The notes under the pieces were generated by a model, which was not told where the DNA came from, made no database searches, and saw only the letters and a list, made by a program, of their open reading frames with translations. From IMG/VR virus record IMGVR_UViG_2695420579_000007: a stretch of 9,467 nucleotides of DNA; one strand, given 5' to 3'. Shown piece by piece: positions 163 through 9,051 of this stretch (positions are counted from its first letter, which is position 1; the number at the start of each line of letters is the position of its first letter). Both the position numbers and the translations under genes were made by a program. This DNA is from a virus. Lineage: Duplodnaviria > Heunggongvirae > Uroviricota > Caudoviricetes.

Positions 163-540
163 TCAAATCCCCAGTGAAGTCACCATTGTCCTGAGAACTT
201 GCAGAACGTCATGATCATAACTTCCATCCAAACCGCGACGGCGAATTGCTTCTCGTATTACCGGAAGCAGTTCGCTGGAAATCTCGGTGCATATTTCACC
301 TGATAATACGCTTGGCTCAAGTGAGAATATTGGTGAACTTACGGTCTTGGTCTCGACAGTTTCAGAGTCAGTGCCAACATTATAAAGCTCAACGAAAGCG
401 GTCTTGATTTTCCGGGCCAGATCTTTTGCTGGCTCGCTTGCAATATCTTTCCCGATTTCTCGCAGCACAGAATGCAATGTATGAGCTGCTGTTTTCTGTA
501 CATCAGACGGTAAATCTTTAAATTCCATCGTCAGCCTCAT
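163..540 (-). CDS. hypothetical protein (125 aa; possibly 121 aa from ATG at 528), distal gene of a two-gene early-left cassette
   Basis: ORF in track. Start ATG at 540-538 overlaps the upstream stop (TGATG); an internal ATG at 528 has a better SD (GAGG about 7 nt upstream). Acidic protein with no motif I recognise. Same strand as and downstream of the OL-like operators. Confidence 0.5.
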   Translation of the reverse strand: MRLTMEFKDLPSDVQKTAAHTLHSVLREIGKDIASEPAKDLARKIKTAFVELYNVGTDSETVETKTVSSPIFSLEPSVLSGEICTEISSELLPVIREAIRRRGLDGSYDHDVLQVLRTMVTSLGI

Positions 541-746
541 CAGTCAGTGTTTCTGGCTAACCAGCAACGCGCGCCAGATTCGGTTTTAAACGTTTTGCTT
601 TTGGTATACGTCATGGCGGTAAACGTTCCATCCTGGTTAGGGAACACGCCGCACACCAGAGATTCGTTGTTGCCAAGATCGATAGTATCCATGCTGACCT
701 CATTTCCCCTTAACGCCGGGGTGGCGGAACAAAAAACCTGCTGCAT
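540..746 (-). CDS. small hypothetical protein (68 aa as drawn; more likely 50 aa from ATG at 692)
   Basis: ORF in track. ATG at 746 has a weak RBS; internal ATG at 692-690 is preceded by GAGGT with a 4-nt spacer. Stop TGA (542-540) overlaps the start of the 125-aa gene, suggesting translational coupling. No recognisable family. Confidence 0.4.
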   Translation of the reverse strand: MQQVFCSATPALRGNEVSMDTIDLGNNESLVCGVFPNQDGTFTAMTYTKSKTFKTESGARCWLARNTD

Positions 747-873
747 AGTTAAAGATTGAACCCTGCCGTCATGTTCTTACGCCTCGGGCTGGCTACTTAA
801 CCCCTGACCACTGTCTGGTAACTCGAAGTATTGCCCTGCATTCTGTGGGGCGGGGTGGGTTGACGCCTGAAAC

Positions 874-915
874 AATAGCATCATTATTTTTTTTGATGTA
901 AATAGCATCGCTATT
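874..915. promoter_or_regulatory. OL-like operator pair, probable early-left promoter region
   Basis: Two 15-bp dyads: AATAGC-ATC-ATTATT at 874-888 and the perfect dyad AATAGC-ATC-GCTATT at 901-915, 27 bp centre to centre. Same consensus (AATAGY-N3-RCTATT) as the two dyads between the divergent regulator genes at 2012-2051. Lies between the terminator and the leftward cassette. Confidence 0.5.
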
Positions 916-930
916 GTTTTTTGTTGGGGC

Positions 931-955
931 AAGAAAAAACCACCCTAAGGTGGTT
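931..955 (-). terminator. Rho-independent terminator of the regulator-antitoxin-toxin operon
   Basis: On the minus strand: stem AACCACC / GGTGGTT with a 4-nt loop (938-955), followed by a U-run (TTTTTTCTT, reverse complement of 931-939). Begins 17 nt after the toxin stop at 972. Confidence 0.55.
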
Positions 956-971
956 CTGTCGGCGGGAATAA

Positions 972-1262
972 TTAACTGTTTTTGCCTGGATACTGTCTTC
1001 GAGAATGCACAATATTTACTACTTCTATGCTTGATGCTGTTACTCGGTAAAGGATGATGTAGTTAGGATGAGTTACAATTTCACGAAGACCAAGAACTCG
1101 CTCGCTTGGAGGATACAGGTAAGGATGCTCTGTGAGCGGCAAAACGGATGTTTCAATTCGAATTTTCATTCTGCGTGCTGCCGCGGGATTTTCTTTAGCT
1201 ATGTAGGCTACGATCTGGCGCAAATCATCACGAGCAGATGGTAGCCATAAAACGGGTAACAT
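972..1262 (-). CDS. parE: ParE/RelE-fold type II toxin (96 aa), ParE2-like
   Basis: 96-aa ORF with the characteristic C-terminal region (LREIVTHPNYIILYRV...IEVVNIVHSRR). Start overlaps the upstream antitoxin stop (TAATG). Third gene of a regulator-antitoxin-toxin operon, as in the paaR-paaA-parE systems of E. coli O157 prophages. Confidence 0.85.
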   Translation of the reverse strand: MLPVLWLPSARDDLRQIVAYIAKENPAAARRMKIRIETSVLPLTEHPYLYPPSERVLGLREIVTHPNYIILYRVTASSIEVVNIVHSRRQYPGKNS

Positions 1263-1456
1263 TATTCACCTCTGTGAGTTGCAGCAGCAATTTGGGCAAT
1301 AATTTGTTCCATTTCCGCCATTACCTCATCATGCGGAATCGCCGGGCGGGGATCCGCGAGGCTTGCTGCTACTTTGGCCCGCAGCCATTCGTTGTAACTA
1401 TTTTCTTGCTCAACTGTCTCAAATTCTGAAACCATTGGGGAAAGGACTGTACTCAT
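1262..1456 (-). CDS. paaA: PaaA-like antitoxin (64 aa)
   Basis: Small acidic protein (SPMVSEFETVEQENSYNEWLRAKVA...) immediately upstream of and overlapping the ParE-like toxin gene. AGGAGA SD about 12 nt upstream of ATG 1456. Closely matches PaaA2 antitoxin as I recall it. Confidence 0.8.
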   Translation of the reverse strand: MSTVLSPMVSEFETVEQENSYNEWLRAKVAASLADPRPAIPHDEVMAEMEQIIAQIAAATHRGE

Positions 1457-1475
1457 TTTACATATCTCCTCTGAT

Positions 1476-2006
1476 TTAGGCGCGACGGCCTTTTTGTGCA
1501 GCTAACCACCGCGCAACCGTACGATCCATTGATTCTTTTTTATCTTTCATCTCCTGAAGCATGTGTTCTTGATCTTCTTTCGGAAAAGCTCTGAACGTAT
1601 GGATTAAATCTCGTTCCATCGGCTCTACGGCAAACGGTAGTTCATCCTCTGTTTGTTCTGTGTCTGCTGGTAATGCGACTATGTTATCTTGCTGTGGTTC
1701 TCGACAATACATCCTTGCAATTTGCAGCAAATCTACCATGTCTGGCCTGATTGACTCAGGGGGAACTTTCAGTAAGCCAGCAAACTTTAGAACAGCCTCA
1801 AGGTTTAGTGGGGTTTGACCATTTAGGTAGTGACTTACCGCCCCTTGTGTTGAAAACCCCATAATTTCCGCCGCACGTTCCTGAGTCAATCCCAACTGAG
1901 ATTTCTTTGCCATCCAGATTTCTTTCAGTCTTCTGGCGGCGTTGAGGTCGGTGTCTGACAATGATTTTCTTTTCATACATCCAATTCTAATAAGATTGCT
2001 AATCAC
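1476..2006 (-). CDS. paaR: CI-type HTH (XRE-family) transcriptional regulator, PaaR-like prophage repressor (176 aa; start possibly at the internal Met 11)
   Basis: N-terminal HTH (LTQERAAEIMGFSTQGAVSHYLNG). No S24 peptidase-like C-terminal domain recognisable. First gene of the operon and divergent from the Cro-like gene across an operator-bearing intergenic region. Confidence 0.75.
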   Translation of the reverse strand: MISNLIRIGCMKRKSLSDTDLNAARRLKEIWMAKKSQLGLTQERAAEIMGFSTQGAVSHYLNGQTPLNLEAVLKFAGLLKVPPESIRPDMVDLLQIARMYCREPQQDNIVALPADTEQTEDELPFAVEPMERDLIHTFRAFPKEDQEHMLQEMKDKKESMDRTVARWLAAQKGRRA

Positions 2007-2087
2007 TTTGAAATAGTATCACTATTTACTTTTAAAAATAACAGTGCTATTAATTATGCATTGGTAACACATCACATAGGGCGGATT
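2007..2087. promoter_or_regulatory. OR-like divergent promoter/operator region
   Basis: Perfect dyad AATAGT-ATC-ACTATT at 2012-2026 and near-dyad AATAAC-AGT-GCTATT at 2037-2051, 25 bp apart. Candidate rightward promoter: -35 TTTACT (2025-2030), 17-nt spacer, -10 TATTAAT (2048-2054) overlapping the second dyad. Candidate leftward extended -10 (TGaTACTAT, minus strand) overlapping the first dyad. Confidence 0.45.
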
Positions 2088-2351
2088 ATGAATCTTGGAG
2101 AATATTTGCATCATTTTCATATAACCCAGAGTTCATTTGCTGAGATTGTTGGCGCATCCCAAGGGATGGTCAGCCACGTTATAACGGGGCGTGCAAAACT
2201 TACAGGAGAAAAAATATTACGTTGGTGTGAAGCAACGGGATGGGTGGTGACCCCACATGAGATTGACAGTAAAACCTACCCCAACCCAACTGACGGCTTG
2301 CCTGCTGAGTTTCAGGCTAACACACAACCATCGGCGGGGGTTGATTCATGA
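2088..2351 (+). CDS. ydaS: Cro-like HTH protein (YdaS family), 87 aa
   Basis: Track ORF begins at TTG 2061; I prefer ATG 2088 (MNLGEYL...), which has an SD-like AGGGCGG upstream. HTH segment QSSFAEIVGASQGMVSHVITG. Stop overlaps the next gene start (ATGA at 2348-2351). Confidence 0.7.
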   Translation: MNLGEYLHHFHITQSSFAEIVGASQGMVSHVITGRAKLTGEKILRWCEATGWVVTPHEIDSKTYPNPTDGLPAEFQANTQPSAGVDS

Positions 2352-2773
2352 AAATCAAGCATGAACACATCCGCATGGCGATGAAAGCCTGGGCGCATCC
2401 GGACGGTGAAAAAGTTCCGGCAGCTGAAATAACCAGGGTTTATTTCGAACTGGGAATGACGTTTCCGGTTCTGCATAACGACAGCAAGCACAACACGCTT
2501 TATCTCAACACCCAAAAGATTTTCCGTTGGCTGGATAAAGACACCCCTGACGCTGTTGAAAAAATTCAGGCGTTGTTACCTGCGATCGAAAGGGCAATGC
2601 CACCTCCGCTGGTGGCTCGAATGCGCAGCCACAGTTCAGCTTATTTTCGGGAACTGGTGGAGACGCATGAACGACTGGTGAGAGACGCTGATGATTTTGT
2701 CGCAGTGGCAATCGCCGGTTTCAATCAGATGAACCGTGGTGGCCCGGCAGGAAATGCTGTGGCAGTACATTGA
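2348..2773 (+). CDS. ydaT: YdaT-like protein (141 aa), proposed CII-type regulator of Rac/CP-933P-like prophages
   Basis: N-terminus MKIKHEHI... matches the YdaT family as I recall it. Translationally coupled to the Cro-like gene. Sits where cII sits in lambda. Confidence 0.75.
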   Translation: MKIKHEHIRMAMKAWAHPDGEKVPAAEITRVYFELGMTFPVLHNDSKHNTLYLNTQKIFRWLDKDTPDAVEKIQALLPAIERAMPPPLVARMRSHSSAYFRELVETHERLVRDADDFVAVAIAGFNQMNRGGPAGNAVAVH

Positions 2774-3915: not shown

Positions 3916-4662
3916 ATGAAAAACATTGCGGCAGCCGGGGTTCTTGAACGTATTCACAGACTTGCACCACAGGGGGCGGTTCCACCGTACCGGACGGTGG
4001 AGGAGTGGCGGGAATGGCAACTTGCTGAAGGACGAAAACGCAGCGAGGAGATTAACCGCCAGAATCGCCAGTTGCGGGTGGAAAAAATCCTGAATCGTTC
4101 GGGCATCCAGCCTCTGCACAGCAAATGCTCGTTTGCGAATTATCAGGTGCAGAACGACGGGCAAAAATACGCGCTGAGCCAGGCCAAATCCATAGCTGAC
4201 GAACTGATGACCGGGTGCACGAATTTTGTGTTCAGCGGTAAAACCGGCACCGGGAAAAATCACCTTGCAGCGGCGATGGGTAACCGGCTGATGGCGAAGG
4301 GGCGCAGCGTGATTATCGTCACCGAGTCTGATGTCATGAGCGTGTTGCATGACAGCTACGACAACGGCAAATCCGGTGAAAAATTTTTACAGGAGCTTTG
4401 CGGGGTTGATTTGCTGGTCCTGGATGAAATAGGCATTCAGCGGGAGACGAAAAACGAGCAGGTGGTATTGCACCAGATAATTGATCGCCGGACAGCATCA
4501 CTGTGCAGTGTCGGGATGTTAACAAACCTGAATCATGCCGCAATGAGCACGCTTCTTGGTGAGAGGATTATGGACCGCATGACCATGAACGGTTGTCGGT
4601 GGGTGACGTTTAACTGGGATAGCTGGCGTTCAAATGTCAGCTTTCCGGGAGTTGTGAAGTAA
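3916..4662 (+). CDS. DnaC-like helicase loader (IstB-like AAA+ ATPase), prophage replication protein, 248 aa
   Basis: Walker A (SGKTGTGKNHLAAA) and Walker B (LLVLDEIG) motifs. SD GGGGGTGA upstream of ATG 3916. Follows the O-like gene by 6 nt. Confidence 0.9.
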   Translation: MKNIAAAGVLERIHRLAPQGAVPPYRTVEEWREWQLAEGRKRSEEINRQNRQLRVEKILNRSGIQPLHSKCSFANYQVQNDGQKYALSQAKSIADELMTGCTNFVFSGKTGTGKNHLAAAMGNRLMAKGRSVIIVTESDVMSVLHDSYDNGKSGEKFLQELCGVDLLVLDEIGIQRETKNEQVVLHQIIDRRTASLCSVGMLTNLNHAAMSTLLGERIMDRMTMNGCRWVTFNWDSWRSNVSFPGVVK

Positions 4663-4683: not shown

Positions 4684-5409
4684 ATGGAAACTGTATTTGA
4701 CGCACTGAAAGCACTGAAAAGAGCCTCTTCACATGTGGTGGCGTCCCGCCTTGGAATCAGCCGTGAAGATGCGGTCAACGAACTGTGGAAACTGAAGCGC
4801 CGTGGTGAAGCGGATAACAAGGGTTCGATGTGGTGGCTGATTCAGGCTGGTGAAAGTGAACCAGTGTCACCGGTACCGAAAGTGACAGCGCAAATGCTGA
4901 CTGAGGCGATTGAACAACATGGCCCACAAACGGCGGATGAGCTGGCACTGATGTTCGGGATTACCTCCCGCCGGGCGAATTCATCGCTGGCCATGGCAAT
5001 CAGCAAAGGGCGTCTGATTCGCGTGAATCAGGGCGGTAAATTTCGGTACTGCATACCGGGCGCTGATTTACCGGCAGAGCCGAAAGCCGCATCCATAGCG
5101 GAAACGGATGGTAAAGTCTTTCCTCAGCCAGCAGGTGTTGCGTTACCGGTACAGGAAGCTGCAACACAGGAAGAAATTAAAACAGAAACTGTGGCGGACA
5201 TTGTGCAGTCGTTGCCATCGTTCACCGAAACGCAAGCGGATGACCTGGTTTTACCATCGCTGCATATGGCAAACCGCGAACTGCGTCGGGCGAAAAGTCA
5301 TGTCCAGAAGTGGGAGCGTGTCTGCGCCGCGTTGCGGGAGCTGAACAAGCACCGGGATATTGTTCGACAGATTGTCGATTCCTCCGGTCGTATTGTGTCG
5401 GAAAAGTGA
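4684..5409 (+). CDS. hypothetical protein, possibly winged-helix, 241 aa
   Basis: Track ORF starts at TTG 4666; ATG 4684 has GGAGGA 9 nt upstream. Follows the DnaC-like gene. No catalytic motif recognised. Confidence 0.6.
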
Positions 5410-5424
5410 TTGCCGGGGGCGCTT

Positions 5425-5556
5425 ATGGCAAAAGTATTTACACAGGAAGAGCGGGAAAAAATTAAGGGGCAGGTTGTTGAACTCGTACGCCAGAGTGGGC
5501 GCGAGACGTTACGACAACGCTCCGATGGAAAGCTTCTGGGGAACGCTGAAAAATGA
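5425..5556 (+). pseudogene. truncated 5' fragment of a small gene (31 native codons), fused out of frame to IS600-derived sequence
   Basis: ATG 5425; MAKVFTQEEREKIKGQVVELVRQSGRETLRQ is native up to 5518, then reads IS600 interior to a stop at 5554-5556. 5467-5518 is identical to 9052-9103, where the rest of the gene continues after the N gap. Confidence 0.6.
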
Positions 5557-5756
5557 GAGCCTGAGCCACTATCGTTTTAATAACCGGGATGAAGCCATCT
5601 CAGTAATACGGGAATACATTGAGATTTTCTACAATCGTCAGCGTCGTCACTCTCGTCTGGGGAATATCTCCCCGGCAGCCTTCAGGGAAAAATATCATCA
5701 GATGGCTGCTTAAAAAAAGAACAAATGGTAGTGTCCGCTATTGCCAGTACACCTCA
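5519..5756 (+). mobile_element. partial IS600 copy: 238-bp right-end fragment in inverted orientation relative to the complete IS600
   Basis: Exact reverse complement of 5758-5995, ending in the IS terminus ...CCTCA at 5756. Carries the last 65 codons of the transposase frame. Its inner boundary is an IS-interior position, not an IS end, so it is not a simple transposition product. Confidence 0.8.
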
Positions 5757-5800
5757 NTGAGGTGTACTGGCAATAGCGGACACTACCATTTGTTCTTTTT

Positions 5801-6619
5801 TTAAGCAGCCATCTGATGATATTTTTCCCTGAAGGCTGCCGGGGAGATATTCCCCAGACGAGAGTGACGACGCTGACGATTGTAGAAAATCTCAATGTAT
5901 TCCCGTATTACTGAGATGGCTTCATCCCGGTTATTAAAACGATAGTGGCTCAGGCTCTCATTTTTCAGCGTTCCCCAGAAGCTTTCCATCGGAGCGTTGT
6001 CGTAACAGTTACCTTTACGCGACATTGATGTTTTCAGACCAGACTGCTCCTGTATGACCCGGTAATCGTATGCGCAGTACTGTGAACCTCGATCAGAGTG
6101 GTGGATTAGCCCGGCAGGTGGGCGCTGGCTCCTGAGCGCCATAAACAGGGCTTTACCTGTCAGCTCTTTTGTCATGCGCTCTCCCATGGCGTAGCCGACA
6201 ATTTCGCACGTATAAACATCTTTGATGCCAGCGAGGTACAACCATCCCTCCTGTGTGGCAACATACGTCAGGTCCGCCACCCAGACCTGATTTGGTGCTG
6301 TAGGAGCGAACGTCTGGTTCAGCAGATTTGGCGCAACTGGCAGATTGTGGTTCGAGTTCGTAGTCGCTCTGAACTTGCGTTTCTGCTTACAGCGTAGCCT
6401 TAGCTCCTTACGAAGACGTGCCAGTCGGTCACGACCAACGATGATGCCATTCTCTGCCAGCTCCGTCTGGAGCCGCCGGGTTCCATATGTTTCGCGAGTG
6501 CGGATATGTGCCACCTTAATCTCCAGTTTTAGCCGCTCATCACTTTGTTTTCTGTCTGAGGGTTCATGCTGTACCCAGTTGTAATAACCGCTCCTGGATA
6601 CACCAAATACCTGACACAT
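5801..6619 (-). CDS. IS600 OrfB (DDE transposase catalytic domain), 272 aa as an independent ORF; expressed as OrfAB fusion by -1 frameshifting
   Basis: The OrfB frame is open upstream of ATG 6619 back through the slippery site. Frame is -1 relative to OrfA. Confidence 0.9.
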   Translation of the reverse strand: MCQVFGVSRSGYYNWVQHEPSDRKQSDERLKLEIKVAHIRTRETYGTRRLQTELAENGIIVGRDRLARLRKELRLRCKQKRKFRATTNSNHNLPVAPNLLNQTFAPTAPNQVWVADLTYVATQEGWLYLAGIKDVYTCEIVGYAMGERMTKELTGKALFMALRSQRPPAGLIHHSDRGSQYCAYDYRVIQEQSGLKTSMSRKGNCYDNAPMESFWGTLKNESLSHYRFNNRDEAISVIREYIEIFYNRQRRHSRLGNISPAAFREKYHQMAA

Positions 6620-6654
6620 CGCTTCAATGGGAAATTGTTGTCGCCATTGTTCGA

Positions 6655-6957
6655 TTAACGCGTATTTTTCAGCGACTCCTGTGCAAAATACGCTGTTGCT
6701 TTTTTTAATATATCTCGCTCAAGGCGAGCTTCATTTAACGCCTTACGCAGTTGCAGAATTTCAGATTCCAGTTCAGCCACCGTGCGGGAACCAGGAGTAC
6801 CGAGCCCTTTTCTGGCGGCGGTAACCCATTGTCCTAAAGTGCCTTCAGGAAGAGATAATCGGGAAGCGCCTTCACTGATCGAAAGTTGATTTTCAAGAAC
6901 CGTTCTGACAGCTTCGGCTTTGAACTCTTTAGAGTAACGTTGGGTTTTTCTGCTCAT
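6655..6957 (-). CDS. IS600 OrfA (IS3-family transposase N-terminal HTH protein), 100 aa
   Basis: 100-aa ORF with HTH and leucine-zipper-like C-terminus (LRKALNEARLERDILKKATAYFA). Contains the frameshift heptamer near its 3' end. Confidence 0.9.
   Translation of the reverse strand: MSRKTQRYSKEFKAEAVRTVLENQLSISEGASRLSLPEGTLGQWVTAARKGLGTPGSRTVAELESEILQLRKALNEARLERDILKKATAYFAQESLKNTR
6700..6706 (-). promoter_or_regulatory. programmed -1 ribosomal frameshift slippery heptamer (A AAA AAA, then G) of IS600
   Basis: Minus strand reads TTA AAA AAA GCA in the OrfA frame. The -1 frame is open from here into OrfB (...ILKK then SNSVFCTGVAEKYALIEQWRQQFPIEAMCQVFG...). Confidence 0.6.
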
Positions 6958-7021
6958 TATTAGCTCCTTCTGATGCCATTCTATTTCAGGAAGGAGTGTC
7001 CGTTAAACTCAGGCTACCTCA

Positions 7022-7704: not shown

Positions 7705-8451
7705 ATGAAAAATATTGCGACAGGCGGCGTTCTGGAACGCATCCGCCGACTGACCCCGCCACATGTAACCGCCCCATTCAGAACGGTAGCGGAGTGGCGC
7801 GAGTGGCAACTTGCTGAAGGCCAGAAACGTAGCGAGGAGATCAACCGCCTGAATCGCCAGTTGCGGGTGGAAAAAATTCTGAATCGCTCAGGCATCCAGC
7901 CGTTGCACCGTAAATGCTCGTTTGCGAATTACCAGGTGCAGAACGACGGCCAGCGATACGCGTTAAGCCAGGCGAAATCCATCGCCGATGAACTGATGAC
8001 CGGGTGTACAAATTTTGCGTTCAGCGGAAAACCTGGTACCGGGAAGAATCACTTAGCGGCAGCTATCGGGAATCGCCTGCTGAAAGACGGTCAGACAGTG
8101 ATTGTGGTTACCGTGGCTGATGTTATGAGCGCCCTGCACGCCAGCTATGACGACGGGCAGTCAGGCGAAAAATTTTTGCGGGAGCTGTGCGAAGTGGATC
8201 TGCTGGTTCTTGATGAAATTGGCATTCAGCGCGAGACGAAAAACGAGCAGGTGGTGCTGCACCAGATTGTTGATCGCCGGACAGCGTCGATGCGCAGCGT
8301 GGGGATGCTGACAAACCTGAACTATGAGGTGATGAAAACATTGCTCGGCGAGCGGGTGATGGATCGCATGGTCATGAACGGCGGGCGCTGGGTGAATTTT
8401 AACTGGGAGAGCTGGCGTCCGAATGTTAGCCATTCGAGGGTTGTTAAGTAG
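7705..8451 (+). CDS. DnaC-like helicase loader, second paralogue (248 aa)
   Basis: Collinear with the 3916-4662 protein at high identity (roughly 85% by eye); Walker A SGKPGTGKNHLAAA and Walker B LLVLDEIG. Confidence 0.9.
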   Translation: MKNIATGGVLERIRRLTPPHVTAPFRTVAEWREWQLAEGQKRSEEINRLNRQLRVEKILNRSGIQPLHRKCSFANYQVQNDGQRYALSQAKSIADELMTGCTNFAFSGKPGTGKNHLAAAIGNRLLKDGQTVIVVTVADVMSALHASYDDGQSGEKFLRELCEVDLLVLDEIGIQRETKNEQVVLHQIVDRRTASMRSVGMLTNLNYEVMKTLLGERVMDRMVMNGGRWVNFNWESWRPNVSHSRVVK

Positions 8452-8465
8452 TTTCAGGAGGATTT

Positions 8466-8824
8466 ATGGCGAAACCTTTTACTCCCGAACAGCGGGAAGA
8501 ACTGAAGACGCGAATTGTGGAACTCGTGCATCAGGACGGTCGGGTCACGATTCGGCAGTTGTCAGATGAAACAGGTATCAGTCGTGCGTCTGTCGGTCGC
8601 TTATGCATAGAACTGGTCGCAAGTGGTGATGTATATAATTCTGGCTACGGCTTATTCCCGTCTGAACAGGCTCGCAAGGACTGGCAAAGCGCCCGCAAAA
8701 AACTCTCGAGAGTAAAGGTGAGGAAACCGGTTGTTGTTGATCCGGACCTTATCTGGTCATTACCTGACGGAGAAATACGCCGCTACGACAGGCGCCTGAA
8801 TATAATCTGTCGCGAGTGCCGGAA
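8466..8824 (+). CDS. small HTH-like hypothetical protein, paralogue of the gene truncated at 5425; 3' end lost in the N gap
   Basis: ATG 8466 with CAGGAGGA SD. N-terminus MAKPFTPEQREELKTRIVELV. C-terminal half nearly identical to the post-gap copy (ELVASGDVYNSGYGLFPSEQARKDWQ...PDLIWSLPDGEIRRYDR...IICRECRK). Confidence 0.65.
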
Positions 8825-9051
8825 NNNNNNNNNNNNNNNNNNNNNNNNNNNNNNNNNNNNNNNNNNNNNNNNNNNNNNNNNNNNNNNNNNNNNNNNNNNN
8901 NNNNNNNNNNNNNNNNNNNNNNNNNNNNNNNNNNNNNNNNNNNNNNNNNNNNNNNNNNNNNNNNNNNNNNNNNNNNNNNNNNNNNNNNNNNNNNNNNNNN
9001 NNNNNNNNNNNNNNNNNNNNNNNNNNNNNNNNNNNNNNNNNNNNNNNNNNN
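8825..9051. other. assembly gap (227 N)
   Basis: Run of n characters. The flanks are two near-identical gene copies, so this looks like a repeat-induced scaffold break. Confidence 1.

Follow-up and report, generated by a model that had tools for sequence, protein, structure and literature searches.

The probable immunity locus and its dyads

A stretch of 9,467 nucleotides from the IMG/VR virus record IMGVR_UViG_2695420579_000007 (Caudoviricetes), hereafter called the window, carries near its left end a putative phage immunity region, in which copies of a 15-bp dyad lie on both sides of a regulator-antitoxin-toxin operon. The window matches Shigella sonnei sequences, and the exact sequence of the repressor is found on thousands of assembled contigs, apparently of the same species. 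The features of this region other than the dyads and promoters are:

934-957, minus strand: intrinsic terminator of the repressor-paaA-parE operon, with a 9-bp stem and a U tract, between parE and the left-hand dyads
972-1262, minus strand: ParE-family toxin, 96 residues (Pfam PF05016, E 1.8e-17; E 6.7e-37 to ParE2, PDB 5cw7)
1262-1456, minus strand: PaaA-type antitoxin, 64 residues (Pfam PF21217, E 3e-23; E 1.4e-23 to PaaA2, PDB 3zbe)
1476-1976, minus strand: immunity repressor, 166 residues, with a lambda-CI-like N-terminal helix-turn-helix domain and a PaaR2-type C-terminal tail
2088-2351, plus strand: Cro-like helix-turn-helix protein in the position of YdaS, 87 residues (phrog_35; recognition helix SQGMVSHVITG)
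2341-2358: exact copy of the published YdaT operator TTGATT-N6-AATCAA (PMC9986795) at the ydaS/ydaT junction, from the 3' end of the cro-like gene to the start of ydaT
2348-2773, plus strand: YdaT, a CII-like activator of 141 residues (phrog_163), 77% identical to YdaT of the Escherichia coli O157:H7 prophage CP-933P

The antitoxin and toxin genes directly follow the regulator gene on the same strand, and the divergent repressor and cro-like genes are separated by a region of 111 bp. The terminator hairpin (-15.1 kcal/mol, z -3.3) is identical to one called as a terminator in a near-identical locus (L001).

The repressor combines two affiliations. Residues 2-81, beginning with a basic MKRK arm at the N-terminus, match the N-terminal domain of lambda CI (phmmer, 1lmb, E 2.9e-9), and the C-terminal 44 residues are 52% identical to PaaR2, the repressor of CP-933P (E 5e-15), this tail being the only region common to both proteins. 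The label "PaaR-like CI-type", which a first-pass annotation of the window had given to the protein, is thus accurate. An S24 peptidase domain is absent from the repressor, for which Pfam gives HTH_3 and HTH_31 only. The PaaR tail aligns across the compared variants, less closely in the two most distant homologues, and its structure was not found among PDB sequences. The Cro-like protein matches the helix-turn-helix of the repressor with an E value of 5e-7. The recognition helices of the two proteins are alike, that of the repressor reading TQGAVSHYLNG, and have the motif (T/S)QG(A/M)VSH in common.

The window was scanned for the pattern AATAGY-N3-RCTATT, a 15-bp palindrome. Four dyads that the first-pass annotation had described were recovered exactly where it had placed them, one pair in a leftward operator-like region (OL) and one in a rightward operator-like region (OR) between the divergent genes, where a fifth and weaker site was added. 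The sites and their relation to the predicted promoters PL (leftward), PR (rightward), and PRM (repressor) are as follows:

874-888: OL1, AATAGCATCATTATT, one mismatch, 18.1 bits; overlaps the -10 of PL
901-915: OL2, AATAGCATCGCTATT, exact, 21.2 bits; the PL -35 begins in its last two bases
1989-2003: O3, AATAAGATTGCTAAT, a weak third operator in the PRM spacer, 11.9 bits, rank 5 in the window
2012-2026: O2, AATAGTATCACTATT, exact, 18.9 bits; adjoins the PRM -35 and shares 2 nt with the PR -35
2037-2051: O1, AATAACAGTGCTATT, one mismatch, 20.6 bits; overlaps the PR spacer and -10

The four stronger dyads are real and non-random. Chance expectations were taken from 200 dinucleotide-preserving shuffles, in which 0.04 matches with at most one mismatch are expected versus the four observed, and none of which reached four; for exact dyads the numbers are two observed versus 0.00 expected. 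In a weight matrix trained on relatives alone, with the window excluded, the same four dyads are the top four sites of the window, at 18-21 bits. A comparison of OR with OL of the window by shared exact k-mers recovered only 8-mers and is a blunt measure here, as the dyad centres vary. The outer AATA and TATT blocks of the dyad are about one helical turn apart. The centre-to-centre distance is 25 bp for the right-hand pair of dyads and 27 bp for the left-hand pair, which bears out the spacing of 25-27 bp proposed earlier.

O3 owes its acceptance as a site to its conserved position and not to its score. It lies about 27 bp upstream of the repressor ATG, a position kept in all relatives, and all lineages share its ATTAG half-site 26-27 bp ahead of the ATG. 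Both dyads that the first-pass annotation had assigned to an OR-like pair were confirmed, but this third site had been missed. The right-hand region thus comprises three putative operators, as in lambda OR.

Conservation and co-variation with the regulators

A search over 5.8 billion proteins recovered homologues of the repressor at 43-100% identity, and the helix-turn-helix with its recognition helix (GF.TQGAVSHYLN) is nearly invariant in all of them. E. coli, E. albertii, and Salmonella carry diverged versions. When one genome per species was scanned with the repressor, no relative was recovered, and a tblastn search against 50,697 phage records gave lambda-CI-like matches only, all with less than 60% identity (about 31% among the matches listed). 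On account of the latter result the repressor appears to be carried by no sequenced free phage. On the DNA level, eight lineages from E. coli, E. albertii, Salmonella diarizonae, and metagenomes were compared, in which the repressor is 47-90% identical to that of the window. Loci considered include:

L003-L005 and L015: E. coli, repressor identity 78% and 75%
L016: E. albertii, repressor identity 79%
L006 and L007: Salmonella diarizonae, repressor identity 47%
L008/L009, L013, and L014: three lineages, with proteins of 243-255 residues that contain two helix-turn-helix domains
L001 and L017-L021: near-identical copies from Shigella and E. coli

In every one of the eight lineages, dyads are located at -75, -50, and -27 relative to the repressor ATG, to within 1 bp, and a second dyad pair (OL) follows downstream of the cargo genes. 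All 35 matches with at most one mismatch in the 55 kb of these lineages fall at OR or OL. The dyad is thus conserved at equivalent positions in related prophages, a point on which the first-pass annotation had staked its proposal. In the alignment of the OR regions, every site keeps its AATA and TATT blocks unchanged, and variation is seen in the central bases and the cro leader. Since the pooled family consensus is AATAGCA-W-TGCTATT, the dyad pattern as first described stands, but its central N3 is not free.

The cargo encoded between the repressor and OL consists of PaaA-ParE, HigB-HigA, HipA_2 with DUF3037, two unknown open reading frames (ORFs), or nothing. Dyads are retained with each of these arrangements. 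Loci with other helix-turn-helix types of the repressor (L002, L010, L011, and CP-933P as L012) gave no match to the dyad even at two mismatches. They carry their own, different repeats, which were read by eye in OR and OL. The operator sequence co-varies with the recognition helices of both repressor and Cro-like protein in the three types compared. In these comparisons the predicted operators track the helix-turn-helix type of the two regulators, and neither the toxin-antitoxin (TA) cargo nor YdaT. The other types likewise have matching helices in the two proteins, namely QQTVQQW in the repressor with QQTVWQW in the Cro-like protein, and SYLSQLMSGR with SYLSQMASGR. Such sharing of a helix in all three immunity types is the classic signature of two proteins that compete for one operator set, and competition is predicted here as well.

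Two side observations concern the variability of the repressor and its surroundings. In the tandem-domain homologues (P0013-P0023), the first helix-turn-helix is of the type seen in the window, the second resembles "PaaR1-like" proteins of 132-134 residues, and the PaaR tail follows; the OR regions of loci that encode tandem-domain repressors (L008, L009, L013, L014) still carry AATAG dyads. The slot between repressor and OL (L003, L006, L008, L013, L014) resembles a rexAB-like bay that mostly collects toxin modules.

Promoters, proposed operation, and competing explanations

The putative operators overlap predicted -35 and -10 elements of PR, PL, and PRM. These elements and further features to the left are:

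540-692, minus strand: DUF1391 (ydfA-like), the first gene downstream of PL
872-902, minus strand: predicted PL-like promoter, -35 TTTACA (902 to 897), spacer of 19 nt, -10 TATTGT (877 to 872) after TG
887-894: T8 homopolymer (A8 on the minus strand) in the PL spacer between OL1 and OL2, of strain-dependent length
1984-2012, minus strand: PRM-like promoter, -35 TTCAAA (2012 to 2007), spacer of 17 nt, -10 TAGAAT (1989 to 1984)
2025-2053, plus strand: predicted PR-like promoter, -35 TTTACT (2025-2030), spacer of 17 nt, TG-extended -10 TATTAA (2048-2053)

A promoter scan called PRM with 9/12 matches and detected the same promoter in L001 and L006. The repressor ATG at 1976 follows 7 nt after the end of the -10, and this distance of 6-7 nt, which offers no room for a ribosome-binding site, is kept in the eight lineages and suggests that the repressor mRNA is leaderless. 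An earlier start of the repressor (GTG at 2006) appears in the ORF list, and a database entry of 178 residues (P0001) is extended likewise. The extended reading frame would run through O3 and the PRM -10. Both the conservation of the MKRK start and the geometry of the promoter favour the ATG at 1976 as the true start.

The positions of the PR hexamers are conserved in the eight lineages, with TTGACT or TTTACA variants, and the PL hexamers are conserved in all lineages. PL was called by the scan in L001 (TTTACA-17-TATTGT, with TG) and in L006 (TTGACT-17-TATTGT); in the window it was not called because of its 19-nt spacer. Both this spacer and the 27-bp distance between the left-hand dyads are due to the A8 tract. 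E. coli FDAARGOS_944 (L001) has A6, the window and four Shigella-type copies (L017 and L019-L021) have A8, and one further such copy (L018) has A9, giving PL spacers of 17, 19, and 20 nt and operator spacings of 25, 27, and 28 bp, respectively. These length differences may be real slippage or homopolymer assembly noise. A further homopolymer difference was seen between O1 and O2, where L019 has T6 instead of T5. A promoter-like match on the plus strand at 860-887 (TTGACG-16-CATTAT), which overlaps OL1 and recurs in L001, is directed at the terminator and the 3' end of parE and serves no gene; it could reflect an antisense transcript or be incidental, and was treated as the latter.

The dyads very probably serve as operators in the lambda-type immunity switch of a cryptic lambdoid prophage, a switch that encloses a ParE toxin-antitoxin pair. 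Conservation, co-variation with the regulators, and the precedent of CP-933P support the view, already put forward in the first-pass annotation, that paired OL- and OR-like operators flank the regulator-antitoxin-toxin operon and would be read by a single CI-type repressor, possibly in competition with the Cro-like protein. In such a switch, dimers of the 166-residue repressor would bind the 15-bp palindromes. Occupied O1 and O2 would cover the -10 and -35 of PR, so that the Cro-like and YdaT genes are shut off. The centre of O2 is placed some 43 bp ahead of the presumably leaderless PRM start, and from there the repressor may activate PRM as CI does at lambda OR2, while O3 in the PRM spacer would serve autorepression at high repressor levels. 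The geometry at PL is the same, and OL2 would cover its -35 and OL1 its -10. Since the OL pair is situated just past the terminator of the repressor-paaA-parE operon, the early-left genes (ydfA...dicB-type) would be silenced; in the closest E. coli relative (L001), a ydfA-ydfB-ydfC-dicB operon begins with a DUF1391-type gene downstream of OL. The Cro-like protein, whose recognition helix is near-identical, is most likely a competitor of the repressor at the dyads. Higher-order assembly, cooperative binding to O1 and O2, and an OL-OR loop of approximately 1.1 kb are probably brought about by the PaaR-type tail.

Several points weigh against this interpretation or parts of it. For the present specificity type it rests on sequence, and the experiments on CP-933P concern another type. 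The O3 score of 11.9 bits is below the 95th percentile of the shuffle maxima (14.9 bits), and the site is statistically weak if taken alone. The sites that entered the consensus were picked with the pattern itself, and the invariance of AATA and TATT is therefore partly built in. PR was read by eye and stays under the scan threshold (8/12, last base not T), and PL of the window, with its 19-nt spacer, may be weak or dead. O1 has a conserved one-base deviation, which makes any order of affinities tentative. Moreover, the repressor has no counterpart of the C-terminal domain of lambda CI, and cooperativity and looping are thus suggested by the analogy with PaaR2 alone. Finally, each repressor type in the sample comes with its own Cro-like type throughout, which makes their contributions inseparable. 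A more elaborate scenario would have a lambda-CI-type DNA-binding domain grafted onto a PaaR oligomerisation tail, with this tail instead of a CI-type C-terminal domain driving O1-O2 cooperativity and OL-OR looping, and the A6/A8/A9 tract acting as a slippage-prone tuner that alters the spacing of the promoter as well as the phasing of the operators and, in Shigella sonnei, silences the early-left operon of kil/dicB type. This combination is unlikely.

The co-occurrence of the two regulators also bears on an alternative, in which the dyads are read by the Cro-like protein only and the CI-like repressor binds elsewhere or recognises something else there. The Cro-like protein has a clear helix-turn-helix and co-varies with the dyads exactly as the repressor does. 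However, the recognition-helix motif is common to both proteins, no other repeated motif common to OR and OL was seen in the window, and both CP-933P and lambda use the same operator regions for both proteins. In addition, the two-domain variants of the repressor keep the first helix-turn-helix together with the same dyads. Exclusive use by the Cro-like protein is therefore decidedly unlikely.

Alternatively, the similarity of the sites might reflect PL and PR as duplicated AT-rich promoters, or chance, and no regulator would bind. Promoter constraint could indeed explain part of the conservation, as the right half-site feeds the -10 (TATT+AA, TATT+GT) and a -35 follows each upstream dyad. Yet the half-sites distal to the promoter show the same invariance, the dyads form true palindromes, O3 does not belong to a duplicated promoter, and the chance expectation amounts to 0.04. 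The motif also switches fully with the helix-turn-helix type while the promoter architecture stays, and this explanation is very improbable. The position of the dyads on either side of the TA operon could further suggest autoregulation by the PaaA-ParE complex, given that type II systems usually autoregulate via the antitoxin. This possibility is extremely slight and already contradicted by the cargo-independent conservation: the dyads remain where HigBA, HipA_2 with DUF3037, unknown ORFs, or no cargo replace PaaA-ParE, they are absent from other paaA-parE loci, and PaaA2 was reported to have no DNA-binding domain. That the dyads are sites of the CII-like YdaT, a DNA-binding protein encoded beside OR, is of negligible probability and likewise already contradicted, since YdaT is 77% identical in CP-933P, which has no such dyads, and its own operator is separately present at 2341-2358.

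Surroundings, significance, and comparison with known switches

Beyond the immunity region, on its right, the prophage has clearly decayed and been rearranged. Two paralogues of 248 residues (3916-4662 and 7705-8451) have, as judged by eye from the translations, the look of DnaC/IstB-type replication or loader proteins. The second of them is preceded by a partial copy of the C-terminus of the upstream replication gene, ending in IPPGFRG, which suggests that the replication module was duplicated or recombined. The region of approximately 5360-6960 contains an insertion sequence with a transposase ORF pair on the minus strand (6655-6957 and 5801-6619), of IS3-family appearance by eye, and a partial duplicate of its transposase C-terminus at 5360-5713. 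Near 8820-9050, an ORF is broken by a stretch of N.

Read as immunity operators, the dyads would provide a clean, lambda-like map of three plus two operators for a switch of the PaaR family. The predicted binding and immunity specificity is new and different from the published one of PaaR2, a difference that the first-pass annotation had missed, within an architecture that has already been published. In CP-933P, the only characterised relative, an ambiguous mix of direct and inverted repeats is found, and the precise binding sequences are still said to be undetermined. No cross-repression is predicted between the type of the window, the CP-933P type, and the "PaaR1" type, and the slot between repressor and OL would be a swappable bay for toxin modules (ParE, HigB, HipA-like). 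These results extend the published model and do not overturn the current understanding; the system is cleanly organised and unsurprising.

The switch of CP-933P (paaR2-paaA2-parE2/ydaS-ydaT) was studied by footprinting and reporter assays (Jurenas et al., 2021, PMC8630535). There, PaaR2 and YdaS both footprint the 97-bp intergenic OR, and a promoter with OL sites beyond parE2, PL933P, is repressed about 100-fold by PaaR2 or YdaS (PMC8630535). Moreover, paaR2 is translated from a leaderless mRNA, and PaaR2, which has no RecA-cleavage domain, forms octamers in solution (PMC8630535). The CP-933P sequence was located by means of a primer from Table S3 of the same study (PMC8630535). The locus in the window is not CP-933P; PaaR2 starts with MQKKE and has 123 residues. 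Both loci agree in gene order, in the PaaR C-terminal tail (52%), in YdaT (77%) and its identical operator, in homologous PaaA and ParE proteins, and in a repressor that has no RecA-cleavable domain; a leaderless mRNA like that of paaR2 is predicted for the repressor of the window. In contrast, the N-terminal domains of the repressors are unrelated and give no alignment, and the Cro-like proteins have no detectable similarity. The operators of CP-933P consist of three to four sites with GTTTAGTAA-type repeats, mixed direct and inverted, whereas those of the window are clean 15-bp palindromes. Its OR carries GTTTAGTG-type repeats and none of the window's dyads, even at two mismatches.

The second paaA-parE locus of O157:H7, here called "PaaR1-type" (L002, L010, L011), has a layout identical to that in the window and a repressor tail that is closely similar by eye. 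It differs in having its own dyad, AAAAACTGTT...AACAGTTTTT, at both OR and OL, together with the recognition helix QQTVQQW and no AATAG dyads. E. coli K-12 has two further cryptic lambdoid prophages of this kind, Qin (DicA/DicC-dicB) and Rac (RacR/YdaS-YdaT). Their repressors are non-inducible and keep a Cro-like gene silent, together with a leftward operon of ydfABC-dicB or kil. The ydfA-ydfB-ydfC-dicB genes downstream of OL in the close relative L001 are a feature shared with these prophages, whereas the repressors and operators presumably differ and the K-12 slot is not known to hold TA cargo.

Lambda itself has 17-bp TATCACCGC-type operators as opposed to the 15-bp sites of different sequence in the window, where only two OL sites were detected, the repressor has no S24/RecA-cleavage C-terminal domain, and the CII analogue is YdaT. 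The distance between OL and OR is approximately 2.4 kb in lambda versus 1.1 kb in the window. Nevertheless, the two share a homologous CI N-terminal domain with a basic arm, and the repressor mRNA, which is leaderless in lambda, is predicted to be so in the window. In both, three OR sites, spaced by 25 and 23 bp in the window, lie between divergent PRM and PR promoters, and a distal OL is located beyond non-essential cargo, which is rexAB in lambda and paaA-parE in the window. The comparison of operator spacing extends to the repressor promoter, as OR2 of lambda is positioned at about -42 of PRM, near the approximately 43 bp of O2.

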